Origin: an uncultured Acidobacteriota bacterium
GTDB lineage: Bacteria; Acidobacteriota; Polarisedimenticolia; Gp22-AA2
Length of the DNA stretch: 61,113 nt
Direction: 5' to 3'
NCBI GenBank assembly: GCA_964384905.1
Contig: CAYLND010000004.1
Span: 1 to 61,113 of the forward strand
Part shown: positions 25,061 through 57,270 of the stretch, in pieces
Layout of the letters: each line of letters opens with the position of its first letter
Position numbering within the stretch: the stretch's first letter is position 1
Program-made: the position numbers and the translations under genes
The notes under the pieces: generated by a model
Database searches by the model: none
What the model saw: the letters and a program-made list of their open reading frames with translations, nothing else
Told to the model about the DNA's origin: nothing

Positions 25061-27699
25061 TGCCACCCGCCGCTCGACCACGCCACGCGCCGCTCCTCAC
25101 CGGGGGTCTGGTGCTGCTCTGTCTGGGCTTCGAGACCTCCGACAGACAGACGCCGCGCGCCGGCCGTCTGAACGATCTCCTCTCGGGCGACGCGAGTCGC
25201 GACGCTCGCGTGCCGAGCAACCGTCAGGAGCGCCGTCAGACTCTGGAGGCTCTCCAGGAGGCCCGGACCTCCCTGAAGCTGATCGAGCGGACGGGCGTCG
25301 GCGACGATCTCGAGGTCGCTCGGATCCTTGCCTCGATGGTGCAGATGCTGTGGAGTCTCGAGGAGTACGCCGAGGCGAAGCCGCTCGCCGAGCGCGCCCT
25401 CGCCATCCGCCTGAAGACCCTCCCTCCGGTGCATCGCGATGTCGCCTCGAGCCTGTACCAGCTCGCCGAGCTGAGTCGGGCCACCGGAGACTACGCCGCC
25501 GCCATGCGCCTGCACCGGCGGGCGCTGGCGGTCTGGGAGAAGGCCCTCGGACGGGATCACTCCGAGGCGGCCTCGTCCCTGCATTACCTGGGCGTGCTGG
25601 CTCTGACGACCGGCGATCTGAAGGGGGCGGAGCGTTTGCTCGAGCAGGCGCTGTCGATCCGGCAGAAGACGCTCGGTCCGTCGCACGAGCAGGTGGCGAC
25701 CACCTTGAACGCCCTCGCCGAAGTGCGGGCGCGGTCGGGAGATCGGGCGGAGGCGGCGGTCCTCCTGGAGCGTGCTCAGGCGATCTGGGAGCGCGCTCTG
25801 GGACCCGACCACCCCTTCATCGCCAGGAGCCTGACTGGCCGGGCGCACCTGCTGGCCGACACCGGCGACATCCCCGGGGCGCGGCGCCTGCTCGAGAGGG
25901 CCCTCGAGATCCGCCTCAGGGCGTTCGGCCCCGAGCATTACCTCGTGGGCCGCAGTCTCGCCGATATCGCCGGCCTGACCGCCCGGGGCGGCGACGAGGC
26001 TCCGGCGGAGGCGCTCTACCTTCGGGCCCTGGAGATCGACCGGCGCGCGCTCGGCCCGACGCATCCCGAGGTCGCCTCGACCCTCGCTGCTCTCGCGCGC
26101 CTGCAGCGGTCCATGGGACGCGTCGGACCGGCGCTCGAGGGCGCGCTGCGCGCCGAGGAGATGGCTCGGGAGTACTTCCTGCGCTCCGCCCGGGATCTGA
26201 CCGAGGACGAGGCGCTGCGATACGAGACTTTGAGGACGTCGGGTCAGGACGTGCTGCTCTCCTTCCTCGCGCATTCGCCCGCGGGGACGACCGACCGCGC
26301 GGCCCCCGAAGCGCCCACCGACACGGTTCGTCGAATCGCCGACGAGATCGTGCGGTCCCGTGCCGTCCTGCTCGGGGACAGGACCAGGGGTCGCGATCGT
26401 CCGGACGGCGAGCCCGACCTGGGCGAAGTGACGTCCGCCCTGCCGGACCGGAGCGCTCTCATCATCTATGTGCAGTTCCAACGGCTTCGCCGCGGGGCGG
26501 AACCGCTGGCCGAATATCTGGCTCTGGTCGTCCGTCCCGATTCCGCGACGCCTGCGGCCATCCCGCTGGGAGCCGCCGGGGAGATCGACACCCTGGTCGC
26601 CGACTGGCGGACGGAAGCGTCCTCCGACCCGCGGTTGCGTCCGCCCGGGTCCGGCGAGCGGGCCTACGCGCTCGCGGGCGGCCGTCTGCGCGAGGCGATC
26701 TGGGACCCGCTGCAACCGGAGCTGGAGCGCGTGCGGCGCGTGTTCGTCGTGCCCGACGGCGCGATCAGTCTGGTGAGCCTCGCCACCCTGCCGCTTCCCG
26801 GAGACGCGTTCCTGGCCGAAAGCGGTCTTCTTATCCACTATCTCTCGGCGCCGCGAGACCTGGTCGTCGAGCGGCACCGCGGCGCCATCGGTGATCGGGT
26901 CCTGATCGTCGGAGCGCCGGACTTCGACGCGCGCTCGAGGACCCACGTTCCCGCGGGCCCGCGGGATGCGAGCACCGATTCGCGGCGGGAGGGGGAGCCC
27001 GTCTGTCCCGAGTTCGCCGCACTCCACTTCGATCCGCTTCCGGGCGCCCAGGCCGAGGCCGGCGAGATCGAATCTCTCCTGGAGCGGCGCGGTCGGGTGC
27101 TACGATTGAGCGGCGCGCGCGCCGATGAGGCCACCTTCAAGAGGAACGCCCCCGCGAGCAGCATCCTCCACCTGGCGACGCATGCCTATGTTCTTCCCGA
27201 CCGCTGCGGCGCCACGGTCGATTCGTCGGAGCCCCTGGAGGATGCGCCCGTCGCCGGGGACAGCCCGTTCCTCCTCTCCGGTGTGGCGCTGGCGGGCGCC
27301 AACCATCGGAGCGACGCCGGCGAGACGCCGTCGGCCGAGGACGGAATCCTCACCGCCGGCGAGATCGCGTCGCTCGACCTCTCCGGCGTGGACTGGACGG
27401 TGCTCTCCGCCTGCGACACGGGCGTCGGCCGGATCCTGCCCGGGGAGGGTCTCGCCGGGCTCCGGCGCGCCTTCGAGGTCGCCGGCGTCAGGACGGTCAT
27501 CATGAGCCTCTGGGCCGTCGACGACGGCGCCGCCCGGATCTGGATGCGCGACTTGTACGAGAAGCGGCTTTCCGGTCTGTCCACGATCGAGGCGGTCGGC
27601 GCCACCGATCTCGAAGTCCTCCGGGCCCAGCGTGCCCGCGGCCGGACGGCGCATCCTTATTTCTGGGGCGGCTTCGTCGCCGCCGGCGACTGGCGATGA
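25057..27699 (+). CDS. TPR-CHAT (caspase-like) protease
   Basis: About seven 42-aa TPRs (LGPxHPxVA); CHAT motifs VPDGAI, HLATHA (His), VLSACDTG (Cys), SLWAVDD and HPYFWGGF. Confidence 0.92.
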   Translation: MMPPAARPRHAPLLTGGLVLLCLGFETSDRQTPRAGRLNDLLSGDASRDARVPSNRQERRQTLEALQEARTSLKLIERTGVGDDLEVARILASMVQMLWSLEEYAEAKPLAERALAIRLKTLPPVHRDVASSLYQLAELSRATGDYAAAMRLHRRALAVWEKALGRDHSEAASSLHYLGVLALTTGDLKGAERLLEQALSIRQKTLGPSHEQVATTLNALAEVRARSGDRAEAAVLLERAQAIWERALGPDHPFIARSLTGRAHLLADTGDIPGARRLLERALEIRLRAFGPEHYLVGRSLADIAGLTARGGDEAPAEALYLRALEIDRRALGPTHPEVASTLAALARLQRSMGRVGPALEGALRAEEMAREYFLRSARDLTEDEALRYETLRTSGQDVLLSFLAHSPAGTTDRAAPEAPTDTVRRIADEIVRSRAVLLGDRTRGRDRPDGEPDLGEVTSALPDRSALIIYVQFQRLRRGAEPLAEYLALVVRPDSATPAAIPLGAAGEIDTLVADWRTEASSDPRLRPPGSGERAYALAGGRLREAIWDPLQPELERVRRVFVVPDGAISLVSLATLPLPGDAFLAESGLLIHYLSAPRDLVVERHRGAIGDRVLIVGAPDFDARSRTHVPAGPRDASTDSRREGEPVCPEFAALHFDPLPGAQAEAGEIESLLERRGRVLRLSGARADEATFKRNAPASSILHLATHAYVLPDRCGATVDSSEPLEDAPVAGDSPFLLSGVALAGANHRSDAGETPSAEDGILTAGEIASLDLSGVDWTVLSACDTGVGRILPGEGLAGLRRAFEVAGVRTVIMSLWAVDDGAARIWMRDLYEKRLSGLSTIEAVGATDLEVLRAQRARGRTAHPYFWGGFVAAGDWR

Positions 27700-27730
27700 C
27701 GGACAGGACGTCCGCCGTGAGGAGCCGCTC

Positions 27731-28849
27731 GTGAGCGTACCGTTCGTGGTGATCGCACTGGCCTTGATCGGCATCGTCCTCTGGGACGCCTTCGAGGTGA
27801 TCGTGCTGCCCCGGCGCGTCGCCCGGCGCTGGCGGTTGGCGCGGATCGTTTATCGGCTGAGCTGGATACCCTGGGTGTCGGTCGCGCGGCGGATCGCCAC
27901 GCGGCCCCGGCGCGAGGCGTTCCTCGGCGTCTACGGACCGCTGTCGCTCCTGATCCTCCTGGCGATGTGGGCGGCCGGTCTGGTGCTCGGCTTCGGGACG
28001 CTGCACTGGTCGCTCCGCACGACGATGCACGCGCCAGGAGGGCCGCCGTCGTTTCTCACCTACCTGTACCTGAGCGGCACGACCTTCTTCACCCTCGGCC
28101 TGGGCGATGTGGCGCCGGGTGGTCCGCTGGCGCGCGGCCTCACGGTCCTGGAGTCGGGTCTCGGGTTCGGCTTCCTGGCCATGGTCATCGGGTACTTCCC
28201 CGTCCTGTACACCTCGTTCTCCCGGCGCGAGGTGTGGATCACGCTCCTCGATCCGAGGGCGGGCTCCCCTCCGACCGCCGGCGAGCTGCTGCACCGGCAC
28301 GGCCGCGATCACCTCCACCATTTGGACCCGTTCCTGCATGAATGCGAACGCTGGACGGCCGAGCTGATGGAGAGCCACATCTCCTATCCGGTCCTGGCCT
28401 ACTTCCGCTCCCAGCATGCCAACCAGTCGTGGCTGTCGGCGCTGACGACGATCCTCGACACCTGTGCGCTCCTCCTGGCCGGGTCCCGGGACGGATCGGT
28501 CTGGCAGGCCCGCGTCACGTTCGCGATGGCGCGGCACGCGGTCGTCGATCTCACCAAGGTCTTCCTTCTCGAGCCGCGCTCTCCGGAGCCCAACCGGCTC
28601 TCTTCATCGGATTTCGCGCGTCTCGTCCGGCTGCTCGACGAGGCCGGACGCCCTCCGGCCGACGCGGCCGAGACGGAGCACCGTCTCGGCCCTCTCCGCC
28701 GGAGTTACGAGCCGTACGTCAATGCGCTCGCGTGCTTCCTGCTCATGCCCCTCCCCGCCTGGGTCCCTCCCCAGCAACCGGCCGGCACACCCGGGCCCTC
28801 CGAGAGGCTGCCCGGGGTGAAGACCGTCACGGAGCCTGCCGTCAGGTAG
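27731..28849 (+). CDS. Two-TM potassium-channel-family protein
   Basis: SD GAGGAG before the GTG; pore helix and filter YLSGTTFFTLGLGDVAP between TM segments. Confidence 0.85.
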   Translation: MSVPFVVIALALIGIVLWDAFEVIVLPRRVARRWRLARIVYRLSWIPWVSVARRIATRPRREAFLGVYGPLSLLILLAMWAAGLVLGFGTLHWSLRTTMHAPGGPPSFLTYLYLSGTTFFTLGLGDVAPGGPLARGLTVLESGLGFGFLAMVIGYFPVLYTSFSRREVWITLLDPRAGSPPTAGELLHRHGRDHLHHLDPFLHECERWTAELMESHISYPVLAYFRSQHANQSWLSALTTILDTCALLLAGSRDGSVWQARVTFAMARHAVVDLTKVFLLEPRSPEPNRLSSSDFARLVRLLDEAGRPPADAAETEHRLGPLRRSYEPYVNALACFLLMPLPAWVPPQQPAGTPGPSERLPGVKTVTEPAVR

Positions 28850-28900: not shown

Positions 28901-29377
28901 TCAGCTGGCAGAGCCTTCCTTGTCGACAGGCTCTCCGGCCTTGACCCAGCCCATGATTCCGGACGGCATGATGAAGACTTCGCGATAGCCGAGATCGGCG
29001 GCCCGCCGGGCCGACTGGTGGCACTCCATTCAATGCTCGTTCATGCAGTAGAAAATGAGCATCGCGTCCTTGTCGGCGGGCAGGACCTCCGGCGTAATGT
29101 CCTTGTGGTTCAGGCGCACGGCGCCCGGCAGATGGTTCTTGGCGTAGACATCGGCCGTGTTGCCGTCGAAGACGTAGGTGTTTGGATGGCCGAGCCGGCG
29201 GGCCACCTGATCGACGGTGTAGTGCCCAAACGGCTCCGGCTCGATCTTCTCTTCCTTGTCGGCGGCCTTCTTGCCCGCGGCGATGGCCCGCGGGGCGTTT
29301 GCGACGGTCACAAGGAGAGCGAGCGGCACGGCAAGAACGAGTGCCGCGAATGCGAAACTCCGCTGCGATGGCGGCAT
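28901..29377 (-). CDS. Exported rhodanese-domain selenoprotein (in-frame UGA at 29030-29032)
   Basis: HLPGA motif, then FYCMNEH-TGA-MECHQSARRAADLGYREVFIMPSGIMGWVKAG, which completes the rhodanese fold in frame to TGA 28901; hairpin after the UGA. Confidence 0.85.
28999..29013 (-). promoter_or_regulatory. Candidate bacterial SECIS (rhodanese)
   Basis: CGGCCC-GGC-GGGCCG hairpin; the G-first loop begins 22 nt after the UGA. Confidence 0.55.
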
Positions 29378-29433
29378 GCTGACCCCCGGGTTTCGGACGG
29401 TCCCGACCCACGACGGGCCGGGCTTCTGCAAAG

Positions 29434-29462
29434 AGTATAGGCGAATCGGAAGGGGCGGTCGA
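29434..29462 (-). promoter_or_regulatory. sigma70-type internal promoter for the rhodanese gene
   Basis: TCGACC, 17 nt, TATACT; about 57 nt upstream of ATG 29377. Confidence 0.5.
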
Positions 29463-29484: not shown

Positions 29485-30012
29485 TCACTTCACCGGATCC
29501 GTGGCCGGATCGACCGCCTCCACCTCCAGCGCCCCGGCTCCCTGCGCCAGCCACCGTCCGCGTATCAGGAGGGTCCGGCCCACCTTCTCTCTGAGCTCCG
29601 TCTCGGACGATCCGGCCGACCGGCCCGCGACACAGGTCAGCTCCCTGGGCGCCAGCATCCGATCGAGGACGAGCACGAGCCGGCCGTCGCGCGACCCCAG
29701 CGCACCGGTCGCGGTGAGATGGACGTTCTCGGGAACGGGGGTGAACCCGGCGTCCCTGATCACCTCGAGCATCTTCGAGGGATCGACCCAGGCCCCGGGT
29801 TGGAGGGTGACTCTCATCTCCGGTGGATCGAGAAAGAGCTTCGCGTCGGCAACGCCAGCCTGGCGTTTGAGCCCCTTGACGAGGCTGTACCCTCACGTCG
29901 CTCAGGTCGCCCCTTTCACCGCGAGACGCACCTCCCTGACGTCCGCTCCGGCCGGCGCGGCGATCAGGATCGCGAGACATAAACCCGCCATCCACTTCCT
30001 GCTCGGCATCAT
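29485..30012 (-). CDS. Exported HMA-like selenoprotein with UxxU motif and a C-terminal beta-rich domain (175 aa)
   Basis: SD GAAGGAGG and a signal peptide; EVRLAVKGAT-TGA-AT-TGA-GYSLVKGLKRQAGVADAKL continues in frame into ORF 29485..29817 (EVIRDAGF). This is the GMxCxxC pattern of HMA domains with both Cys as UGA (29902-29904 and 29893-29895). Confidence 0.85.
29851..29886 (-). promoter_or_regulatory. Two tandem candidate SECIS hairpins (UxxU gene)
   Basis: AGCCTC-GTCAA-GGGGCT (29870-29886; loop 21 nt after UGA1) and AACGCCA-GGC-TGGCGTT (29851-29867; loop 32 nt after UGA2); both loops start with G. Confidence 0.5.
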
Positions 30013-30023
30013 CGTGGCCTCCT

Positions 30024-30932
30024 TCAGAAAAACGTCTCCCATCCGGCGCGGATCTCGTAGCCGAAATCGGTCTCCCTCTCGTCCCCTCCCTTGAACAGCG
30101 GGAAGAACACTCCGACGCGGTACTGGTTCCGACCCTTGGTGATGATCGGCGTCAGGTGCAGGCCGGCCACGCGGTGAGCGTTGCCGCTGGACAGCCCGCC
30201 CTCGAGCCGGTCGCTCGCGGCCGCTTCGCCGTGCACCCCGACGGCGAGGTTGATGCCGAGGTCGTCCGCCGTGTTCGGACGCACGACCCACCGACCGTAC
30301 GACGCGTCCGCCTCCCCCATGTCGCCCTTCCTGAAGCCGTCGCCGAAATCGTGATCGTACGAGAAGCTCGCCCAGAAGGAATCGACGAGCCGCTCGCGGT
30401 CGTACGCGTAGCCCAGCCGGACCCCGTGGCGGCCGCTCCCGGGCTGGTCGCCCGGGGCCAGCCGGGCCCCGTCGGCTCCCACCCGGTCGTCCGCGCCGGT
30501 CGGGAGCTTCCAGCCGACGACGAGAGTCTGACCGGTCTGGAAGCCGGTCTCCTGATGAAGGTGGAAGCGGTACTTGGCCTCGAGGGTCGCGTCGCCGATG
30601 CCCGAAACTGTGGCGCTCTGGACGGAGCCGGCGAGGTTCTCGTCAAGGTCCATGCGGGCGACCGGGAGCGTGAGACGCACGTTCACGAAGCGGTTGATGC
30701 CGTACTGCAAGCCGAACTCCTGCTCGAGGCTGCGCATCCTCTGCTCGCCCGGATCGAGCCGGCCCCCGAGGCGGACCAGGCGGAACATGATCTCGGGGTG
30801 GATCACACCGGGGCCGAAGACGACCGGTGTCTCGCCCCAGAGCGGCTCGTGCGCCAGCGCCGGAGCGCCCGAGCCGAGGAGGATGGCCGAAGCCATCCCG
30901 ACGCAGCGCCTTCGCAGCGCGCCTGTTCTCAT
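30024..30932 (-). CDS. Outer-membrane beta-barrel protein (putative channel or transporter)
   Basis: ATGA overlap with the TlpA-like stop and a signal peptide (ALA/HEP); alternating amphipathic strands; GIGDATLEAKYRF motif; C-terminal Phe. Confidence 0.75.
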   Translation of the reverse strand: MRTGALRRRCVGMASAILLGSGAPALAHEPLWGETPVVFGPGVIHPEIMFRLVRLGGRLDPGEQRMRSLEQEFGLQYGINRFVNVRLTLPVARMDLDENLAGSVQSATVSGIGDATLEAKYRFHLHQETGFQTGQTLVVGWKLPTGADDRVGADGARLAPGDQPGSGRHGVRLGYAYDRERLVDSFWASFSYDHDFGDGFRKGDMGEADASYGRWVVRPNTADDLGINLAVGVHGEAAASDRLEGGLSSGNAHRVAGLHLTPIITKGRNQYRVGVFFPLFKGGDERETDFGYEIRAGWETFF

Positions 30933-31495
30933 GGTCGATGCTCCTGCGCTTCGAGGACCGCCCGCTCGATCTCTTTTTCCTCTCCTCTCAGGAATCCCAC
31001 GTTGGTGTAACGCACGATGCCGCGCGCGTCGATCACGATCGAGGTCGGGTGCGCCTCGAGGGCGTAAAGCGACGCGATGCGCGCGCCGGGGTCGAAGAGG
31101 ATCGTGTAGGTCGCTCCGGTCTGTCCGAGAAACTCCGTCACCTGATCGCGCGGCGGATCCATCTCGGTGATTCCGATCACCTCGAGACCGCGAGAAGAAT
31201 AGAGGCGGTGGATGCGCTCCAGCTCCGGCATCTCGATGCGGCAGGGAGGGCAGACGGGCGACCAGAAGTTCAGGAGCACGACGTGCCCCCGCAGCGACGC
31301 CAGGGACAGCCTCCGGCCGCTCAGGGTCCGGGCGGAGAACAGGGGCGCCGGCTCGCCGGGCGCAGGCGCACGTCGCCCAGGAGCCCCGCCGGACAGGCTC
31401 TCCCCACCCGCCCGGGCCATCGGGCCGATCCCGGCGATCAGCAACGCCAGCGCGGCCGCTCGATGGACACGATTCCACGATCGCTCGCCTCTCAA
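30929..31495 (-). CDS. TlpA/ResA-like thiol-disulfide oxidoreductase
   Basis: TTG start with SD GGAGGG; N-terminal hydrophobic anchor; APLFSARTLSG, LLNFWSPVCPPCRIEMPEL and cis-Pro motif HPTS. Confidence 0.9.
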   Translation of the reverse strand: MRGERSWNRVHRAAALALLIAGIGPMARAGGESLSGGAPGRRAPAPGEPAPLFSARTLSGRRLSLASLRGHVVLLNFWSPVCPPCRIEMPELERIHRLYSSRGLEVIGITEMDPPRDQVTEFLGQTGATYTILFDPGARIASLYALEAHPTSIVIDARGIVRYTNVGFLRGEEKEIERAVLEAQEHRP

Positions 31496-41831: not shown

Positions 41832-41996
41832 CTAGTGTCGCGTCCCCGAAGTCTTGTTACGTTCGGCCGCCGCTGCCTCCCGGCCCGCGGCGTTGCTTCT
41901 CGGTCACATATTCCCGATATGCTCCCTCGTCGCGCCTTGCGGGCCGGGCGCATCGACGGCCTCGGCGTTAACAACACTTCGGAGACGCGACACTAG
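41832..41996. mobile_element. MITE / non-autonomous element with 28-bp terminal inverted repeats at a CTAG site
   Basis: The left arm ctagtgtcgcgtccccgaagtcttgtta (41832-41859) matches the reverse complement of 41969-41996 at 26/28; internal palindromes; no ORF. Confidence 0.8.
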
Positions 41997-44900
41997 ACCG
42001 CGGGCGCCAGGTCGACGGCCCGTTCGTCGCCCGTCTCGCGCGAGGGGGCGAGGGCGTGTCGGCGCGCCACGAGCACGTAGATCGACGGGACCACGAACAG
42101 CGTGAAGCCGGTGCCGATGATCATGCCCGTGACGAGCATCATGCCGATGCTGTTGCGGGCGCCGGCGCCGGGCCCGGTCGCGAACACCAGCGGCAGGTGG
42201 CCGACGACCGTCGCGGCCGTGGTCATGAGGACGGGACGCAGCCGCGTGCCGGCGGCCTCGATGATGGCCTGAAGCGGGGCCTTCCCCTGCTCCTGAAGCT
42301 TGTTGGCGAACTCGACGATCAGGATGCCGTTCTTCGAGACCAGCCCGACCAGGGTGATCAGGCCGACCTGGCTGTAGATGTTCAGCGTCGTCAGGCCGAG
42401 GTACGAGAACAGGAGCGCCCCTGACAGCGCCAGAGGCACCGAGCCGATCAGGATGACGAACGGATCGCGGAAGCTCTCGAACTGGGCCGCCAGGACGAGA
42501 TAGATCAGGATCGCCGAGAGGACGAAGACCCCGAGGAACTTCCTGCCTTCCGTCCGCAGCTGCCGCGACTCGCCGGCGTAATCGATGCTGTAGCCCTGCG
42601 GCAGAAGGGCGCTCGACTCGTTCTCGAGATAGGTCAGCGCGCGGTCGAGCGACACGCCGGGCGCGATGACCCCCTGGACGCGGACGGCGTTGAGCTGCTG
42701 GAACCGCTTCAACTCGCGGGGCTCCGTCGTGGTCCGCAGCGTGGCGAAGGTGGAGAGCGGCACCAGGCGGCCTCCCGGCCCGGTGACGTACATGTCCTTG
42801 AGCTGCTCGGGGGTGAGACGCTCCGACCTCTTGACCTGGGGGATGACCTTGTAGCTGCGGCCCTGGATGCTGAACCGGTTGACGTAGTTCCCGCCCAGGA
42901 GCGTCGACAGATCCGCGCCGGCCTGGCTCAAATCGACTCCCTGCGAGCGGACCTGGTCGCGATTGAACACGATCTCCGTCTGCGGCTGGTCGAACTTCAC
43001 GTCGACGTCCGCGTACATGAACAGGCCGCTGGCGTACGCCTTCTGGACGAGCTCGCCGGCGAGCGCGGCGATCTGGGCCGGCTCGGTGGTCGAGCCGATG
43101 ACGAACTCGACCGGGAACCCCTCGCCGCCGGGAAGCGGCGGCGGCGTCAGCGGGATGATGCGCAGCCCGGGGATCTTCGCGAGCGCGGCGGCCGCCTCCA
43201 CCTGGAGCTGCGCGGCGCTCTTCGTCCTCTCGCTCCACGGCTTCATGACCATCCCTCCGAACCCCGCGGTGTTCGAGGACACGACCTGGAAGGTGATGTC
43301 GGTTTCCGGGAACGACCCGAACACTTCGCCGACCTTGGTCGCGAACAGCTTCGTCTGGTCCAGCGTGGCGTTGGCCGCAGACTGGATGATGGCGAACACG
43401 AACCCCTGATCCTCGGTCGGCGCCAGCTCCTGCTGCGACTGCATGTAGAACGGGACGATGAGCGCCACGACGATCGCCCACAGGACCAGGACCACGGGCC
43501 GGTACTCCAGCGTTCCCGACAGGGCCCGCGTATACAGGGTGCGAATCCGCTCGAAGCCGCGATTGACCATGCCGGCGAAGCCCCTCTCGGTATCGCCGGA
43601 GTGCAGGAGCTTCGACCCCATCATCGGGGAGAGCGTGAGCGCCACGACGCCGGAAACGATGACCGCGCCCGCCAGCGTGAAGGCGAATTCCCGGAAGAGC
43701 GCTCCGGTGAGCCCCCCCTGGATGCCGACCGGCATGTAGACCGTGGCGAGGGTGATCGTCATGGCGATGATCGGACCGACCAGCTCGCGGGCGGCGTGCA
43801 GGGCGGCCTCGAATGGTCGCTGGCCCGATTGCAGGTGCCGCTCGACGTTCTCGACCATGACGATGGCGTCGTCGACCACCAGACCGACCGACAGAACGAT
43901 GGCGAGCAGCGTCAGCAGATTGATCGAGAAGCCGGCCACGAGCATCAGGAAGACCGCGCCGATGAGCGAGATCGGGATGGCGACCACCGGAATCAGCACG
44001 GCGCGCAGCGACCCGAGGAACAGATAGATCACCACGATGACGATCAGCAGCGTCTCGGAGAGGGTCTTCAGGACCTCCTTGATGGCGTGCTCGATGTACA
44101 CCGTCGAATCGTAGGCGATGGCCGCCTTGATGCCGGGCGGAAGCTGCGCCCGGATCTCCGGAATGAGGTCGCGCACGCGGCGGACCACCTCGAGCGAGTT
44201 GGCGGTGGGCAGCACCCAGACCCCCAGGAAGGTCGCGGTCTGGCCGCTGAACCGGACGTCGGCCTCGTAATTCTCCGCGCCCAGGACCACGTCGGCGATC
44301 TCCCCCAGCCGGACGATGACGCCGTTCTCCTCCTTGACGACGAGCTGCCGGAACTCGTCCGCCGTCTTCAGGTCGGTGTTGGCCACCAGGTTCACGGACA
44401 CCATGGAGCCCTTTGTCCGGCCGAGGGCGGAGAGATAGTTGTTGCGCGCCAGGGCGTCGCGCACGTCGGACGGCGAGATGCGCAGCGCCGCCATCTTGTC
44501 CGGCTTGAGCCAGATGCGCATGGCGAACGTGCGGCCCCCCAGGATGTCGGCGCGCTGCACGCCGCTGACGGCGCTCAGCTTCGGCTGGACCACGCGGGTC
44601 AGGTAGTCGGTGATCTGGTTCTCGTCGAGCGCGTCGGACGAGAAGCCGATGTACATGGCCGCGAACTCGTTGTCGGCGGTCTGCAGCTCGATCACCGGCG
44701 CCTCGGCCTCCGGAGGAAGCGTGTTGCGGACCTGCGCCACCTTCGCCTGGATCTGCGTCAAGGCGGCGTTGGTGTCGTAGTTCAGCTTCAGGTGCACGGT
44801 GATGGTGCTGATCCCCTGGGCGCTGGACGATTCGAGGAAATCGATGCCGTCGGCGCTGGCGATGACCCGCTCGAGCGGCGTGGTGATGAAGCCGCGCACC

Positions 44901-45073
44901 AGATCGGCCCCGGCGCCCACGTACACGGTCGACACGTTGATCACCGCGATGTCGCTGCGGGGGTACTGACGCACGGCGAGGGTGCGGATCGACTGCAGGC
45001 CGGCGATGAGGATGATCAGATTGACGACGACCGCGAGGACCGGACGCCGGATGAAGAGATCGGTGAGCTTCAT
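41993..45073 (-). CDS. RND efflux permease (AcrB/AcrD/AcrF family, MexW/MexI-like)
   Basis: FIRRPVLA, GLVVDDAIVMVEN, KNGILIVEFA and RLRPVLMTT motifs; 1026 aa. Confidence 0.95.
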   Translation of the reverse strand: MKLTDLFIRRPVLAVVVNLIILIAGLQSIRTLAVRQYPRSDIAVINVSTVYVGAGADLVRGFITTPLERVIASADGIDFLESSSAQGISTITVHLKLNYDTNAALTQIQAKVAQVRNTLPPEAEAPVIELQTADNEFAAMYIGFSSDALDENQITDYLTRVVQPKLSAVSGVQRADILGGRTFAMRIWLKPDKMAALRISPSDVRDALARNNYLSALGRTKGSMVSVNLVANTDLKTADEFRQLVVKEENGVIVRLGEIADVVLGAENYEADVRFSGQTATFLGVWVLPTANSLEVVRRVRDLIPEIRAQLPPGIKAAIAYDSTVYIEHAIKEVLKTLSETLLIVIVVIYLFLGSLRAVLIPVVAIPISLIGAVFLMLVAGFSINLLTLLAIVLSVGLVVDDAIVMVENVERHLQSGQRPFEAALHAARELVGPIIAMTITLATVYMPVGIQGGLTGALFREFAFTLAGAVIVSGVVALTLSPMMGSKLLHSGDTERGFAGMVNRGFERIRTLYTRALSGTLEYRPVVLVLWAIVVALIVPFYMQSQQELAPTEDQGFVFAIIQSAANATLDQTKLFATKVGEVFGSFPETDITFQVVSSNTAGFGGMVMKPWSERTKSAAQLQVEAAAALAKIPGLRIIPLTPPPLPGGEGFPVEFVIGSTTEPAQIAALAGELVQKAYASGLFMYADVDVKFDQPQTEIVFNRDQVRSQGVDLSQAGADLSTLLGGNYVNRFSIQGRSYKVIPQVKRSERLTPEQLKDMYVTGPGGRLVPLSTFATLRTTTEPRELKRFQQLNAVRVQGVIAPGVSLDRALTYLENESSALLPQGYSIDYAGESRQLRTEGRKFLGVFVLSAILIYLVLAAQFESFRDPFVILIGSVPLALSGALLFSYLGLTTLNIYSQVGLITLVGLVSKNGILIVEFANKLQEQGKAPLQAIIEAAGTRLRPVLMTTAATVVGHLPLVFATGPGAGARNSIGMMLVTGMIIGTGFTLFVVPSIYVLVARRHALAPSRETGDERAVDLAPAV

Positions 45074-46197
45074 CAGCTGTCCTCGGGCTTGGGCTGCGGA
45101 TTGTTGGGCGGCTGGACCTCGTTGTTCACCTGCACCGCGGCGCCGTTGCGCAGCTTGAAGGCGCCCGAGGTGACGACCTCCGCCCCCGGCGCGATGCCCG
45201 AGACGACCGCGATCTGATCGCCCCGCGCGCCGCCCAGCTTGACGAACTGCTGGCGCACCCCGCGATATGTTTTGCCGTCCGGCGATTTCATGTCCTCGAC
45301 GATGAACACCGAGTCGCCGTAGGGAGCGTAGCTGATGGCGGAAGCGGGCAGCGCCACGACCTGGTCCCTGGTCTCGAGGGTGACGCTCGCGGTGACGAAC
45401 ATCCCGGGGCGCAGCCGCGCCTTGCCGTTCTCGAACGTCGCCTGCACCCGCGCGTTGCGCGTCGATTCGTCGACGATCGAGTCGATCGCCGAGAGGCGCC
45501 CGACGGCCTCGGCGCCCGGCACGCCCTCGGCGGCCACGCGCACCTCGGCCCCCGGCTTCAGGCGTCCGATCTCCTGCTGCGGCACGTCGAAGTTGACGTA
45601 GATCGGATCGAGGGACTGCAGCGGCACCACGGGGTCGCCGCTCTTCAGGTACTGGCCGAGATTGACCTGGCGGATCCCGAGGATGCCGCCGAACGGCGCC
45701 CGGATCGTCTTGCGGTCGATGCTCGCCTTGATCTCGCCGACGCTCCCCTGCGCCTGCCGGTTCTCCGCGTCGGCGCTGTCGAAGTCGGCCTGCGAGGTGA
45801 CGCCCTCGCCGCGCAGCCCGCGGACGCGCTCGAGATTCAGCCGCGTGAGCTCGAGCCTGGCCTCGGCCGCCGCCAGCTGCGCCTGCTCCTGACGCGTGTC
45901 GAGCTGGACGAGGAGCGTGCCGCCGGCGACCCGGTCACCAGAGGCAAAGGCAATCTTCTGGACCACGCCCGGCAAGTCGGCGCTCACGGTCACGCCGTTG
46001 ACCGCCGCCACCGTCCCGATGGCGCTGAGGCTCCGCTGCCATTCCTCCTGACGGGCGATGATCGTGGTGACCGCCTCGGGCGGCGGCTGGTACCCCCCGC
46101 CCCCCATCGCGGCCTGGGTCCGCCGGAACTTCACGAAGCCGATGAGAGAAAGCAGCGCCGCCATCGTGACCAGCATGACGACCATTCGCCTGACCAT
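45073..46197 (-). CDS. RND periplasmic adaptor (membrane fusion protein)
   Basis: N-terminal TM, lipoyl-like halves (GVVQKIAFASG; IRAPFGG) and LRPGMFV; TGATG overlap with the RND gene. Confidence 0.93.
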   Translation of the reverse strand: MVRRMVVMLVTMAALLSLIGFVKFRRTQAAMGGGGYQPPPEAVTTIIARQEEWQRSLSAIGTVAAVNGVTVSADLPGVVQKIAFASGDRVAGGTLLVQLDTRQEQAQLAAAEARLELTRLNLERVRGLRGEGVTSQADFDSADAENRQAQGSVGEIKASIDRKTIRAPFGGILGIRQVNLGQYLKSGDPVVPLQSLDPIYVNFDVPQQEIGRLKPGAEVRVAAEGVPGAEAVGRLSAIDSIVDESTRNARVQATFENGKARLRPGMFVTASVTLETRDQVVALPASAISYAPYGDSVFIVEDMKSPDGKTYRGVRQQFVKLGGARGDQIAVVSGIAPGAEVVTSGAFKLRNGAAVQVNNEVQPPNNPQPKPEDS

Positions 46198-46346
46198 CAG
46201 GATGCGTCTCCGTGAGAGACGCCGCTCGTAGACTCCGAGCCGGCGCCCCCGAGAGTGCGAGCGGGTGCAGTGGCCCACCCGGCCTGTCCGTTGACTCGCC
46301 TATTGTACAGGAGCGGGCGCCCCGCCGAGGAGGAGGAAACGGGGCC

Positions 46347-46964
46347 TCAGCGCGGCTTGGCGCGATGCCTCTCCAGCTCGGGCTTGACGATTCTCTCGTA
46401 GCACTCAGGGCAGATGCTGTGGCTGAACTGGGCCTCCGAGTGCCGTCCGATGTACGCCTCGACCTGCTGCCAGTAGTTCGTATCATCCCGCACCTTCTTG
46501 CAGTACGAGCAGATCGGCAGAAGCCCGCTGAGCTGCTTCACTCGCGCCATCGCGTCCTCGAGGTCGCGCACCCGATTCGCGAGCAGGCTTTGCAGCTCGA
46601 TCATCCGCACGCCGACCGCGAGCCGGGCCCTCAGCTCGTCGTGGTCGAACGGCTTGGTGACGTAGTCGTTCGCGCCGGCGTCGAGACCCTCCACGATGTC
46701 CTCTCTCCGATCCTTACCGGTGAGGAGAATGACGTAGACCGCCTCGGCCCCGGGTGATTTCCGCAGCCTGCGGCAGATCTCCGGCCCGTCGACGCCCGGC
46801 ATCATCCAATCCAGGATCGCCAGGCGGGGCGCGTCCTGTCCCTGCAGGCCCTGCCAGGCCTGGGTGCCGTCCGTGCATTCCACGACCTCGTGCCCCCAGG
46901 CGGAAAGAGCCGCCTTGAGGACGACGCGGACGGTGTCGTTATCCTCCGCCACCAGGATTTTCAT
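46347..46964 (-). CDS. Response regulator (REC + Cys/His-rich C-terminal domain)
   Basis: LVAEDN, ILDWMMP, LTGK and YVTKPF; C-terminal LPICSYCKK...SHSICPEC. Confidence 0.92.
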   Translation of the reverse strand: MKILVAEDNDTVRVVLKAALSAWGHEVVECTDGTQAWQGLQGQDAPRLAILDWMMPGVDGPEICRRLRKSPGAEAVYVILLTGKDRREDIVEGLDAGANDYVTKPFDHDELRARLAVGVRMIELQSLLANRVRDLEDAMARVKQLSGLLPICSYCKKVRDDTNYWQQVEAYIGRHSEAQFSHSICPECYERIVKPELERHRAKPR

Positions 46965-47005
46965 GAGCCGCTCCGATTCCTCACGCGAGTTCAGGCGGCC
47001 ATCCT

Positions 47006-47083
47006 ATGACGAAATGGGGCTTCCGGCGCTCGGATCTCACGATTGAGATCGGGGCGCGCGGCTGCGCGCCACTCTTTCGTCAT
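47006..47083. other. Intergenic multi-stem structure (candidate cis-regulatory RNA or sRNA)
   Basis: A closing stem atgacgaaa/tttcgtcat (9 bp) encloses two 7-bp hairpins (47033-47050 and 47053-47070). Confidence 0.35.
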
Positions 47084-47222
47084 CCGCTTGATCGGTCCGC
47101 CTCTGGTTCCTAGGTTTACGCCCGTGCAGCAGGAAGGGAGGTGCCGCTTCGTTGTGCGCCCCGGGAACTCTGGCGTCCCGGGCATGAAACCGATTTCAAA
47201 CCACGAAAGGAGAACACACGTC

Positions 47223-47786
47223 ATGAAGCGGATCCTGTGTCTCGCGTTGTTTGCTGTGGTCGCGCTGGCGGCGCCTGTCTTCGCCGCCAACCAGCCGGAC
47301 AAGACCGGTGAGATCGGGTTCGACGTCGCGCAGGCGAACCTCAGCAATTCCGACGCCACCGGCATCGATTCGGCGCAGTTCCTCGGCATCCGTGGCGGGT
47401 ACCAGATCAACCCGCAGTGGCAGATCGAGGGTCAGATCGCGTCGTCGTCCGAGAACGGCACCGTCGCCGGCACGGACGTCGACACCAAGATGCGTCTGTA
47501 CATGGTGAACGGCGTGATGAACTTCCACCCGCGCAAGAAGGAGTACGTGCCGTACGTCATGGCGGGGATCGGCCGGGCCGACGTTCAGGTCGACTCGACC
47601 GGCTCCAACGCCAGCGACAACGCGGTCGCGTACCAGATCGGCGGCGGAACGCGCATCTTCTTCGGCAAGACCCAGAGGATGGCGTTCCGGACGGACGTGT
47701 CCCTGCTGCGCGAGAACTCCTTCAGCGCCAGCACCACGTTCACGACCGTCACGGCCGGAATGACCTTTAAGCTGGGAGGCCGCTAA
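47223..47786 (+). CDS. Outer-membrane beta-barrel (OmpA-like membrane domain) protein
   Basis: SD GAAAGGAG and a signal peptide; eight amphipathic strands; VPYVMAGIG and AYQIGGG motifs. Confidence 0.85.
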   Translation: MKRILCLALFAVVALAAPVFAANQPDKTGEIGFDVAQANLSNSDATGIDSAQFLGIRGGYQINPQWQIEGQIASSSENGTVAGTDVDTKMRLYMVNGVMNFHPRKKEYVPYVMAGIGRADVQVDSTGSNASDNAVAYQIGGGTRIFFGKTQRMAFRTDVSLLRENSFSASTTFTTVTAGMTFKLGGR

Positions 47787-47821
47787 GCCGCCCCGCAGCA
47801 CGGGTCCGTTCGGATTCACTC

Positions 47822-47858
47822 GAAGCCCCGATCGCCACGCGATCGGGGCTTCTGTCTT
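47822..47858 (+). terminator. Rho-independent terminator
   Basis: 14-bp stem gaagccccgatcgc/gcgatcggggcttc with a 3-nt loop, followed by tgtctt, between convergent genes. Confidence 0.75.
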
Positions 47859-47894
47859 GCGGGAGGCTCGATCGGACGGACCGGGCGGCCCTCG

Positions 47895-48404
47895 CTACGG
47901 CTCATCCGGCGCGTCAGCCTGATCCTCTCCCCAGGCGCCATGGTGCTGCCCGAGCCGCTGCTGCATGCGCTCGAGAGACTGCTGGCGCAGCGTGTCCATC
48001 TGCTTCTGCTGGTCGGGCGTCAGGACGCCCCGGATTCGGGACGCCAGCCGCCCCCGCTCGACCGCGAGATCCCCCTCGGCGCCCGACGCCCGCGTGGCCG
48101 CGGCGCGGATGGCGCTCTCGTCGAAGACCGGCCCGTGGATCGCCTCCTCGAGGGCGCGGCGCGCCGCACGGCTCGCCTCGGAGAGCGGGGCGAGCTTGGC
48201 GTGCTCGTCATCGACGATCGACTTGACCTGGTTCTTCTGATTCTCGCTGAGATTGAGCTCGGAAAGGAACGGCATCGGCGGTCCGCCATGCGACCCATGG
48301 GGCCGATCCATCGGCTTCCCGCCCGCCAGGGCGAGACCGATGCTGAACAGCCCGGCCAGGGCCAGACCGGCCGCCTTCTTCGGTGCTGTGGTTCTCGGCT
48401 TCAT
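47895..48404 (-). CDS. Spy/CpxP-family periplasmic chaperone (LTXXQ)
   Basis: Signal peptide; LNLSENQ and VLTPDQQ motifs; SD GAGGAGG. Confidence 0.88.
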   Translation of the reverse strand: MKPRTTAPKKAAGLALAGLFSIGLALAGGKPMDRPHGSHGGPPMPFLSELNLSENQKNQVKSIVDDEHAKLAPLSEASRAARRALEEAIHGPVFDESAIRAAATRASGAEGDLAVERGRLASRIRGVLTPDQQKQMDTLRQQSLERMQQRLGQHHGAWGEDQADAPDEP

Positions 48405-48452
48405 CGACTCCTCCTCAGGAAGTGGGAGCCCCGCGGGCCCCTGCCATCCACA

Positions 48453-48480
48453 CAGACGGCACGCCGCTCCCGCCGGTTAC
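48453..48480 (-). promoter_or_regulatory. ECF-type promoter for the Spy/CpxP gene
   Basis: GTAACC-N16-CGTCTG on the minus strand. Confidence 0.65.
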
Positions 48481-54873: not shown

Positions 54874-54933
54874 GAACATTCGGACCCCGGGCTTTGTCTG
54901 CGGGCGGACTCAGGGATATCATCCCTTCCCGAT

Positions 54934-57270
54934 ATGAACAGGACCGCGGCACGGCCCGCAGGGGGTGAGGGCCCGGGGGCGAGGCAGGGGTGGGCTCTGT
55001 GGGTGCTCGCCGCCGTCCTGGTCGCGGGCATCGGCATCTGTTTCTACCTGACCCGATTCCACGAAAACCAGATGTACGGCGACGCGACCGCCACGCTCGC
55101 CAACTGCCCCGAGACCGAGACCACCACCTGCGAGGTCGTCAACACCAGCGGCTACTCCGAAATCGCCGGCGTGCCGATCTCGGCGCTCGGGATACCGACC
55201 TACGGGCTGCTCCTGTCGCTGCTCGTCCTGGCGCGCCGCAGGCCGCGGCTTTTGGCCTACGTGCTCGCGATCGGTATCCTGACCGTTCTCTATTCCGCGT
55301 ATCTTTATTATGTCTCCGTGGTGAAGATCGGCTTCCTGTGCCTGTGGTGCTTCCGCCTGTACTGCATCAACGCCTCGATTCCGATCCTCGCGGGTCTGGC
55401 CGCGAGGCGGAATCCCCTGATTCTGCTGCGTGAGACCGTCGCGGACCTGCTGCGGCTGGCGCCGGAGGTGCGGATGGCGGCCGCCCTGTTCGCGGTTCTT
55501 CTGGCCTCCGTCATCCTGGGCGACCGCGTCTATCGCGCCGGCCTGATGCCGGCGGCGCCGGCCGCGTCGGTGCCGAACGAGCCGCAGCCCCCCGTCGCCG
55601 AGGCGCCGGCCCCGGAGGCGGCCGCGACTGCGCCGACGGTCGCACCCGCTCCGTCACCTGTCTCCGCGCGTGCTCATCCTCCACAGGGTGCGGCGCGCCC
55701 GGTTTCCCAGCCTCCCGCGAACCTCGCCGCCCCGCCCCTCGTCGAGGCGACGCCAGCGGTCCCGGCGCCCGCGCCGGTGACGCCGCCCTCGTCACCCACG
55801 GCGCCCGCGATGCTTGCCGGGGCGCCGTTCGTCGTGCCGGGCCCGCTGCTCCAGCTCGCGGGGCTGGCCGGCGGGCTCACGCAGACGCCGTTCGATCTCC
55901 AGTCGCATGTCGGGAAGGGGCGGCCGGTCGCCCTGTTGTTCTGGGCGCCCGGCTATTCCCTCTCCGAATCCTCGCTGGTGGCGCTCACCCGTTACATCCG
56001 GCAGCAGGCGCCGCAATACGAGCTGTTCGCGATCGCCGGACGTCGCGAGGACCAGAGGGCGGAGATGCTGTGGGAGTCGTTCCTGATGCTCGATCTGCCT
56101 CCCGACATGCCTCTGCTGATGGACGACGGCTACGCCGTCTCCAAGCAGCTCGACGTGACCGATGTCCCGAACCTGGTCCTGATCGACGGCAAGGGCCGGC
56201 TGGTGATCTCGAAGATCAAAGGCCTCGAGCAGATCGTCAGCTACTCTCCGACGCAGGTCCCCGCCGAAAGGCTCATCCGTGACGTCGCGCGGGGCGAGCC
56301 GTATGCCCCGATCACGCGCGTGCCGCCGTTCTACCCCGGCAGCGAGCTGTACGGTCAATGCGCCCCCGAGTTCACCCTGCCCGAGGTCCTGAGCGGCAGG
56401 GAGGTCCACTTCGCGGGCCGGTCGGCGAACGGCAAGCCGACCCTCCTGATGTTCTGGTCGGCGACCTGCCGGCACTGTCAGAAGGAGATCCCGCAGCTCC
56501 TGGCACACGTGCGGGCGCACCCCGGTCTCTACAACGTCGTGTCGGTGGCGATGATCAAGCCCGACCGCCCCGACTTCTCGCACCGCAAGGTGACCGAGGC
56601 CTACATCCGGAGCAACGGCCTTCCGTGGCTGGTGCTGGATGACTCGAGCGGCTACGCCACCGACCTGTACCAGGTCGTCTCCACGCCGACGTCCTTCCTG
56701 ATCTCGCCCGGCGGCCAGGTGATGGACGCCTGGTACTACCCGCACGAAAGCCTCGACGCGCCGATGTCCGAGGCGCTGGCGCGGCTCAACGCCGCGGGCG
56801 GCGGCTGCCGGCCTCGGCAGGAGGCTCGTCCCAGCACCGTGTCGTTCTCCGTCCTCGGGCCGGACGGCCGGAAGGTCGCGCTCGCGTCCCTGGCCGACCG
56901 GCCGGCCCTCGTGCACCTCTGGGCCACGTGGTGCGTCCCCTGTCAGACGGAGCTGCCGGACATCCTGAAGTTCGGCGAGGCGCTCGAGAAGAAGGGCGGG
57001 CGCCTGATCCTGGTCTCGGTCGAGGACGCCGGCGCCGGCGGCCGCATCACGAGCTACGGCGGGCGCTTCGGGCCGTCATTCCAGAGCTACCGCGCTCCCC
57101 AGGACGGAATCGCCGACCGGATCAATCTCAGCTACGAGGTGCCGCGCACCTTCCTGGTCTCGGCCGGCGGGCGGCTGGTCCGAACGTTCCACGGCGCGCA
57201 GAAGTGGACCGACCCGGCCTTCGAGACGAAGATCCTTTCCCTGCTCCAGATCAACAGGGACCACGGTTAG
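54934..57270 (+). CDS. VKOR domain fused to three thioredoxin-like (redoxin) domains
   Basis: VKOR loop Cys pair (CPETETTTC) and CLWC; Pro/Ala linker; LFWAPGYSLS (no CxxC), FWSATCRHC and LWATWCVPC. Confidence 0.85.
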   Translation: MNRTAARPAGGEGPGARQGWALWVLAAVLVAGIGICFYLTRFHENQMYGDATATLANCPETETTTCEVVNTSGYSEIAGVPISALGIPTYGLLLSLLVLARRRPRLLAYVLAIGILTVLYSAYLYYVSVVKIGFLCLWCFRLYCINASIPILAGLAARRNPLILLRETVADLLRLAPEVRMAAALFAVLLASVILGDRVYRAGLMPAAPAASVPNEPQPPVAEAPAPEAAATAPTVAPAPSPVSARAHPPQGAARPVSQPPANLAAPPLVEATPAVPAPAPVTPPSSPTAPAMLAGAPFVVPGPLLQLAGLAGGLTQTPFDLQSHVGKGRPVALLFWAPGYSLSESSLVALTRYIRQQAPQYELFAIAGRREDQRAEMLWESFLMLDLPPDMPLLMDDGYAVSKQLDVTDVPNLVLIDGKGRLVISKIKGLEQIVSYSPTQVPAERLIRDVARGEPYAPITRVPPFYPGSELYGQCAPEFTLPEVLSGREVHFAGRSANGKPTLLMFWSATCRHCQKEIPQLLAHVRAHPGLYNVVSVAMIKPDRPDFSHRKVTEAYIRSNGLPWLVLDDSSGYATDLYQVVSTPTSFLISPGGQVMDAWYYPHESLDAPMSEALARLNAAGGGCRPRQEARPSTVSFSVLGPDGRKVALASLADRPALVHLWATWCVPCQTELPDILKFGEALEKKGGRLILVSVEDAGAGGRITSYGGRFGPSFQSYRAPQDGIADRINLSYEVPRTFLVSAGGRLVRTFHGAQKWTDPAFETKILSLLQINRDHG

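Follow-up and report, generated by a model that had tools for sequence, protein, structure and literature searches.

Rhodanese-like selenoproteins have been listed in five forms, designated by their motifs UxxS, UxxG, CxU (NF041203), UxxG and, in the case of TsoB (NF045694), UxxxxU (PMC13188914, 2026). Forms 1 to 4 share the rhodanese fold with a selenocysteine (Sec, U) in or beside the active-site loop, and were predicted from the pairing of Sec and Cys homologues together with a Sec insertion sequence (SECIS) (PMC13188914). Here we describe a gene on the minus strand, positions 28901..29377, of a 61,113-nt stretch of an uncultured member of the Acidobacteriota (contig CAYLND010000004.1; this whole stretch is called the window in the following). 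The comparison of related sequences makes it almost certain that this is one gene, neither two open reading frames (ORFs) nor a pseudogene, in which an in-frame UGA at 29032-29030 is decoded as Sec. From its sequence, the product is an exported protein of the rhodanese fold whose Sec takes loop position +5, in the motif C-x4-U-x2-C-H.

That Sec-containing rhodaneses had already been predicted computationally was stated in a preliminary description of this DNA and agrees with the five listed forms. However, the motif C-x4-U-x2-C is in none of them (PMC13188914), there is no UxxC motif among the sulfurtransferase selenoproteins of earlier catalogues, and no NCBIfam selenoprotein model reaches its cut-off on the window protein. 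The best NCBIfam match is TsoB (form 5), which aligns residues 88–154 with profile positions 93–159 at 41.7 bits, below the cut-off of 805. Its listed U-x-x-x-x-U has the same four-residue spacing as the C-x4-U found here, but the window protein lacks the DsbD-like membrane module, has one Sec instead of two with a Cys at the first position, and has no Tso operon neighbours in the window. The C-x-U model (NF041203, rhodanese_LYCAU) gives 37.3 bits against a cut-off of 115, and the Sec of the window protein follows the Cys by five residues, not two. Forms 1, 2 and 4 (UxxS, UxxG) are set apart by their listed motif only, the Sec forms compared here being UxxC in 112 out of 112 cases; this holds also for the reference of form 1 (WP_010941598.1, UxxS), for which the difference is known by motif only. 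Its motif, the place of its Sec, the length of its loop and its scores in the models make this a distinct form of rhodanese selenoprotein, and its identity with an already catalogued one is unlikely.

The full coding sequence comprises 157 amino-acid codons, with Sec as codon 116, and a true stop TGA. It starts with an ATG at 29377-29375 (minus strand), a start which is backed by homologues aligning from residue 1; a GGGGG at 29383..29387 (minus strand), 5 nt 5' of the ATG, may serve as a Shine-Dalgarno-like element. The first 115 codons end with ...DAMLIFYCMNEH and are followed by the in-frame TGA, the Sec116 codon (29030..29032, minus strand), which was assigned by comparing TGA and Cys codons among homologues. 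The next 42 in-frame codons read MECHQSARRAADLGYREVFIMPSGIMGWVKAGEPVDKEGSAS, and a second TGA at 28903-28901 (minus strand) closes the frame as the true stop. With readthrough the active-site loop becomes C111-M-N-E-H-U116-M-E-C119-H120. The coordinates of the gene, the internal UGA at 29030 and the loop C-x4-U-x2-C given in the preliminary description are thus exact in the sequence. Third codon positions have a G+C content (GC3) of 0.83 up to the TGA and of 0.81 from there to the true stop; 3' of the true stop GC3 drops to 0.63 and the value for second positions (GC2) climbs to 0.73. Since TGA is the normal stop in 22 of the 30 Pfam-supported genes of the window, the genetic code is not globally reassigned. 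A crude scan of the window for further genes with in-frame TGA returned antisense artefacts only.

A homologue search in a collection of 5.8 billion proteins yielded 18 matches of 99–108 residues, every one of which stops four residues after the Cys, with FYCMNEL, FYCANEL, FYCMNLL or FYCMNLV. Such a shared end point is the signature of a gene family cut by gene callers at a conserved stop. The DNA of 56 genome loci and 80 metagenome loci was then compared. A TGA stands at the identical codon in 117 other loci, followed by a conserved tail of 42–45 codons, and TGC or TGT is found at this codon in 18 loci. The conservation of the in-frame TGA is far beyond chance. Hosts of the TGA form are Acidobacteriota (Candidatus Polarisedimenticolia, 'gp22'), many Myxococcota and the metagenome-assembled genomes (MAGs) of one member of the Verrucomicrobiia and three Planctomycetota. 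In most homologues the codon 3' of the TGA is not a start (CAC, ACG, CTG, GGC and others), so the tail is no gene of its own. Among 97 distinct TGA forms, 48% of the differences in the tail fall on codon position 3 and 38% of the differing codon pairs are synonymous; in its pattern of changes the tail evolves as coding sequence under purifying selection. NCBI and JGI records split the homologous genes into an ORF of 103–106 aa and one of 42 aa, and one homologue is annotated by NCBI as a truncated protein of 106 aa. A peculiar TGA form is L119 (1027-1290), in which the similarity is lost about 10 codons after the TGA (…MECHESARRVIRTRGGRNPC…); a frameshift, a decayed copy or an assembly chimera are possible.

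In addition, more than 2,000 full-length relatives with Cys came up in a profile search; their names say no more than 'rhodanese-like domain-containing protein' or 'rhodanese-related sulfurtransferase'. The closest Cys orthologue, P0139, has 53% identity to the window protein and reads FYCANEVCMECHQ. In a library of 1.84 billion representatives (clustered at 50% identity), 339 clusters were found at E <= 1e-30 and 2,347 at E <= 1e-10. The best 148 representatives have Cys at the Sec-aligned position in 171 of 172 motif occurrences, followed at +3 by Ser (122), Ala (31) or Cys (7). The pattern FYCxxxxCxxC/S, which the preliminary description had expected for Cys homologues, is therefore a real one, and the observation that would have spoken against Sec, a lack of Cys at this position, was not made. 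Sec forms with a complete sequence show U-x-x-C-H throughout (112/112), and the 17 complete Cys forms from the fetched loci have C-x-x-C in 6 and C-x-x-S in 11 cases. A neighbour-joining tree implies at least three switches between Sec and Cys, with the C-x-x-C Cys forms interleaved with Sec forms. The exported Cys proteins share export signal, domain, loop length and the invariant C-x4-C with the Sec forms, but have Cys for Sec, mostly Ser or Ala in place of Cys119, and no SECIS hairpin. Names and papers found for these C-x4-C proteins gave no characterised function. A tblastn search against plasmids returned generic rhodaneses, ArsR fusions and a protein associated with pyrroloquinoline quinone (PQQ), the CXXCW protein, but no close relative.

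Two arrangements among the Cys forms are worth mentioning. Many of the top Cys relatives (P0155-P0175 and others) are tandem proteins of two to three domains and 250–530 residues, with loops such as FYCSGPTCMAAP, so the C-x4-C rhodanese module is used in repeats too. In three myxobacterial loci of the C-x-x-S type (L026, L030, L039) the gene directly upstream, about 120 codons from the family gene, encodes a canonical rhodanese with a single Cys (…VYCAVGSRS…), and the two rhodaneses may form a functional pair.

How the UGA is read can be approached from the RNA 3' of it. The bacterial SECIS (bSECIS) model describes a stem of 4–16 bp, a loop of 3–9 nt with a G within its first two positions, a distance from UGA to loop of 16–37 nt and a minimum free energy of -7.5 kcal/mol or lower (PMC13188914). 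The window carries a hairpin of this type at 28999..29013 (minus strand), CGGCCC-GGC-GGGCCG, with six G-C pairs, the loop GGC and -10.3 kcal/mol; its apical loop begins 22 nt 3' of the UGA, and it falls within the model on all four counts. The same is true for 95 out of 95 distinct Sec forms, in contrast to 2 out of 18 Cys forms (L119 was left out of these statistics). The 95 hairpins have spacings of 20–25 nt, stems of 5–8 bp and loops of 3–6 nt, and nearly every TGA form shows the G+C-rich hairpin about 15–17 nt 3' of the UGA. Furthermore, the mean energy of the segment +13..+42 is -13.6 kcal/mol in Sec forms and -9.3 kcal/mol in Cys forms (Mann-Whitney p = 5e-8). Compared with synonymous recodings that preserve the protein, Sec forms have a mean z of -1.39, with 81% below -1, whereas Cys forms have a mean z of +0.17. 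Compensatory changes are seen in pair 20:34 (CG in 58, GC in 17) and pair 21:33 (GC in 40, CG in 26), and pairing is seen in 76% of cells, a share that stays at or below 55% once the 3' partners are slid. An RNAalifold consensus retains no more than 4 pairs, since clades differ by one base in their pairing register; a single consensus structure was therefore dropped in favour of per-sequence criteria and controls. On this comparative evidence, the decoding of the UGA is steered by a short G+C hairpin, a predicted bacterial SECIS element.

The readthrough product has the features of an exported rhodanese, as the preliminary description had claimed for both export and fold. A predicted Sec-type signal peptide (29279..29377, minus strand) begins with MPPSQRS and has a hydrophobic core of about 20 residues, with a hydropathy peak of 2.5–3.0 over residues 7–26, followed by AIA ahead of AGKK; cleavage is likely before A34. 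Of 116 distinct homologue N-termini, 114 have a hydrophobic segment ahead of the domain and 28 have a lipobox, so export is a family trait. The rhodanese homology domain (Pfam PF00581) covers residues 54–146 (28940..29218, minus strand). With Cys in place of the stop, the readthrough product matches PF00581 at 45.4 bits over profile positions 1–101 of 102 (gathering threshold 22.2 bits), and the truncated ORF only over positions 1–69 at 26.7 bits. A product ending at the UGA would be without the helix and the strands that complete the rhodanese fold, and it is these that the 42 further codons are predicted to supply, also according to the structure model. The first Cys of the loop, Cys111 (TGC, 29045..29047, minus strand), had been taken for the canonical catalytic Cys and does line up, in HMMER, with that of the YgaP rhodanese domain; it lies at the end of a beta-strand and is invariant across the homologues examined, several of the screens having demanded a Cys there. 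Cys119 (TGC, 29021..29023, minus strand), the partner in U-x-x-C, would lie in the first turn of the following helix.

These positions were judged on the Cys orthologue P0139, modelled with AlphaFold2 as a stand-in for the Sec-containing window protein. The model has a mean predicted local distance difference test (pLDDT) value of 86, and of about 97 inside the rhodanese domain. In it the first Cys (Cys98, corresponding to Cys111) closes the strand 93–97, the second one, at the Sec position, lies in the loop just before the helix 105–115, and the third one in the first turn of this helix. Among solved structures, ordinary single-domain rhodaneses come nearest, with 18–27% identity and a TM-score of about 0.6–0.65. 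The family loop can be written as C-[A/M]-N-E-x-[U/C], with a nearly invariant Asn, a common Glu and no conserved basic residue. By the alignment gap against canonical rhodaneses, it is one to two residues longer than in classical sulfurtransferases.

In classical rhodaneses the active-site loop, C-X5, spans six residues and contains basic or hydroxyl ones, a criterion that is said to go back to Bordo and Bork in 2002. The loop of the window protein departs from it, by its one or two additional residues and by the lack of a conserved basic residue. The classical sulfurtransferases GlpE, PspE and the YgaP domain, of which PspE is periplasmic too, and the solved structures 6mxv, 3nhv and 1yt8 share the fold and the aligned catalytic Cys, but have the six-residue loop, a single Cys and no Sec. 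Phosphatases or arsenate reductases of the Cdc25/Acr2 type have C-X5-R with an essential Arg. The family does not show this motif: at position +6 of the loop M, H, T, L, G, P or S are found, but no conserved Arg. A lead to the rhodanese ExtH of Geobacter proved irrelevant, as the selenoprotein of that cluster is ExtKL.

A second loop Cys is found in the CXXCW protein associated with PQQ-dependent catabolism (TIGR03865; QND36250.1 on S. meliloti pSymB), which is exported and rhodanese-like. When FFCLD-GCWMSW of QND36250.1 is aligned with FYCMNEHUMECH, both its Cys fall on Cys111 and Sec116 (BLASTP, 36% over 53 residues, E = 5e-12). However, TIGR03865 gives the window protein 35.6 bits against a cut-off of 128, the CXXCW loop is one residue shorter and has neither Sec nor a third Cys, and its Trp is absent from the window protein. 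The CXXCW protein sits in a methanol/ethanol PQQ-dehydrogenase cluster, and PQQ genes were not found in the window. A third parallel comes from the low-molecular-weight (LMW) protein tyrosine phosphatases, in whose P-loop, C-x4-C-R-S, the catalytic and the second Cys form a reversible protective and regulatory disulfide. By analogy, we propose this disulfide logic for Cys111 and Sec116, although the LMW phosphatases differ by an unrelated fold, an Arg-containing phosphate-binding loop, their cytoplasmic location and the absence of selenium.

The invariant C-x4-(C/U) pair within one loop, kept throughout the family, points to a redox couple inside this loop. Cys111 would be loaded with sulfane sulfur or oxidised, and then be attacked by Sec116, the stronger nucleophile, to give an intraloop selenenylsulfide; and Cys119, in U-x-x-C at the helix N-terminus, would resolve or shield the selenium. 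The oxidising equivalent could then go from Cys119 to a thiol-disulfide partner in the periplasm. Overall, the protein would reduce or exchange periplasmic persulfides, polysulfides or disulfides, and would not be a plain thiosulfate:cyanide sulfurtransferase. TsoB fuses its rhodanese domain to a DsbD-like module, by which a domain of this kind is linked to a transmembrane reductant pathway. As analogies, TsoB, the CXXCW protein and the LMW phosphatases support a redox-cycled over a static site. The redox relay Cys-Sec-Cys, with a role in the sulfur or disulfide chemistry of the periplasm, is nevertheless put forward tentatively, with somewhat less than even confidence. For the selenoprotein and the relay combined into one explanation, the grading is a compromise, and we regard that explanation as fairly probable. 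The fully specified version is doubtful: a sixth, uncatalogued form of rhodanese selenoprotein, in which an exported Cys-Sec-Cys relay in a lengthened loop would be a new kind of periplasmic reductase, using a selenol to reduce persulfides, polysulfides or oxidised cysteines.

Several points weigh against this interpretation. Neither selA, selB nor selD is among the about 40 genes of the window (Pfam), and Rfam and tRNA scans of the 61 kb had no match at all, a tRNA-Sec included, so the capacity of the organism to decode Sec is something we infer. The hairpin of the window is among the weaker ones, with its 6 bp and a z of -0.73 against recodings, and simple folding of the 71-nt region gives nothing better than its shuffled versions do (z = +0.95). 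Given this result and a genome of 70% G+C, the fold of the single window sequence is uninformative alone; the case for the SECIS rests on the family. The strict pairing of Sec with Cys119 may reflect shared ancestry, as Sec forms and C-x-x-C Cys forms are intermingled in a single part of the tree, with only three or more switches. An acidic loop without a conserved basic residue is unusual for a thiosulfate-binding site, the link to TsoB is made by score and published motif spacing only, and the related loci have no conserved neighbour genes that would hint at a substrate or redox partner. Finally, the whole family, including its Cys forms, is known from sequence alone.

Among the other explanations, one that accepts the selenoprotein survives best, though we consider it unlikely. 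In it the protein would be a pure thiol-disulfide oxidoreductase, similar to DsbA, DsbC or DsbG or acting in sulfenic acid repair, which uses U-x-x-C and has no sulfane-sulfur chemistry. The classical arrangement in oxidoreductases is a U-x-x-C at the N-terminus of a helix, the best NCBIfam match is a rhodanese fused to a DsbD-like module, and PspE, a rhodanese of the periplasm, can drive the formation of disulfides in E. coli without DsbA. Moreover, most bacterial selenoproteins are of this type (PMC13188914). However, the pair that is invariant throughout the family is C-x4-C and not C-x-x-C, and the strict keeping of the canonical catalytic Cys argues that cysteine chemistry of the rhodanese type still matters.

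We find it improbable that the selenoprotein is a handler of metals or metalloids, with Cys111, Sec116, Cys119 and His120 as a site for soft metals (Cu(I), Hg(II)) or for selenite, tellurite or arsenate, in cooperation with a double-Sec HMA/MerP-like neighbour. The adjoining gene at 30012..29485 does encode an exported HMA-like protein with U-x-x-U, C-x4-U-x2-C-H together with the frequent Glu or His of the loop resembles a set of ligands, the loop is lengthened as in superfamily members of the Cdc25/Acr2 type, and some myxobacterial Cys forms have mature N-termini rich in His and Met. But nowhere else is the HMA cassette linked to the rhodanese family, and the Arg of the C-X5-R motif of arsenate reductases and phosphatases is missing, with +6 variable. 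In most Cys forms Cys119 is replaced by Ser or Ala, so a site of three chalcogens is not a feature of the family. In addition, a promoter-like site lies between the HMA and the rhodanese gene.

There is hardly any room left for the TGA as a real stop, be it in a pseudogene, by a sequencing error or between two small genes (115 aa and 42 aa), for although gene callers and the NCBI annotation treat the locus so, the codon after the window TGA happens to be ATG and the related locus L119 loses the conserved tail soon after its TGA, the same TGA with its tail recurs in 117 other loci of four phyla and is replaced by a Cys codon in 18, the next codon is mostly not a start, the SECIS-type hairpin is specific to TGA forms, the tail shows a pattern of purifying selection, and without this tail the product would miss the helix and strands needed for a complete fold.

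If the selenoprotein with a Cys-Sec-Cys relay is indeed a sixth form, it would be widespread in mostly aerobic soil lineages (Acidobacteriota, Myxococcota, Verrucomicrobiia, Planctomycetota) and systematically hidden by annotation pipelines which cut the gene at the UGA. The database entries of this family are fragments of 99–108 aa and 42 aa, so recognising the Sec codon repairs the annotation of more than 100 genes of soil bacteria. A selenoprotein would thereby be added to lineages whose selenoproteomes are usually thought to be small. Its Sec site would be unusual, not at the canonical catalytic Cys but five residues later, and always with a Cys at +3. The Cys forms (C-x4-C-x2-S/A/C) are ready-made controls, which makes this a compact 12-kDa system for asking what selenium contributes at a resolving or backdoor position. 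It also opens the question of the periplasmic role of the large C-x4-C rhodanese family. Nothing known is overturned by it, as both rhodanese selenoproteins and exported selenoproteins have precedents.

The upstream neighbour mentioned above, the exported HMA/MerP-like gene (29485..30012, minus strand), has two in-frame TGAs of its own, at 29904-29902 and 29895-29893. It reads G-A-T-U-A-T-U at the GMTCxxC site of HMA domains, and its best NCBIfam match is NF041115, 'UxxU metal-binding (seleno)protein', with 32 bits against a cut-off of 95; the protein carries about 85 further residues as an additional C-terminal domain. Both TGAs are retained in homologues: P0141 has been translated with W at the two positions, and the metagenome contig L141 reads GAT*VT*GYS. 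The RNA 3' of these TGAs folds into two hairpins (-33.3 kcal/mol, z = -2.69). The product is probably a double-Sec metal-binding selenoprotein and, with the adjoining rhodanese gene, the organism carries more than one gene with a conserved in-frame TGA, which lends indirect support to a Sec machinery in its genome.

The HMA gene belongs to a cassette at 29485-31495 (minus strand), in which it is preceded by the genes of a TlpA/ResA-like redoxin and of a 302-aa outer-membrane-like protein that has no Pfam match and a terminal Phe. The preliminary description had placed the rhodanese in a metal-type operon. Such a cassette exists and recurs in the metagenome contigs L141 (1110-3185), L142 and L143, but there the next gene encodes a cupin and not a rhodanese, and the cassette is near none of the 135 related rhodanese loci. 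Clustering of the flanking ORFs gave no family common to more than about 12 loci, and the Pfam neighbourhoods of P0013, P0014 and P0022 are all unlike each other. A conserved metal operon was therefore rejected; in the window, two selenoprotein genes lie side by side as a local arrangement and do not form a conserved system. Since a cupin gene follows the other cassettes and none of the 135 loci has one, the rhodanese gene is most likely a separate transcription unit. A candidate promoter of its own had been proposed at 29434-29462. The site found there (29434..29462, minus strand) is of the sigma-70 type, TCGACC-17 nt-TATACT, with 9 of 12 consensus matches, and lies in the 107-nt gap between the HMA-like gene and the rhodanese; one such site was found against 0.1 expected in shuffles, as a consensus match only. 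The rhodanese of the window is probably transcribed from it.

On the other side an Ion_trans_2 ion-channel membrane gene (27632-28849, plus strand) converges on the rhodanese, with 51 nt between the stop codons. It is the sole flanking gene that recurs in about 11 of the closest acidobacterial loci, where it is mostly located upstream of the rhodanese gene, and downstream here. At a distance of about 13–19 kb (41996-48476) there is a cluster of the metal/efflux type, with an AcrB-family pump of the resistance-nodulation-division (RND) type, a CusB/HlyD-type adaptor, a response regulator, an outer-membrane beta-barrel protein and a Metal_resist/LTXXQ (CpxP/ZraP-like) protein. Further away, a large fusion of a VKOR domain and two thioredoxin/redoxin-like domains is encoded at 54874-57267 (plus strand), which is a candidate for a periplasmic oxidant or reductant system of the same organism.

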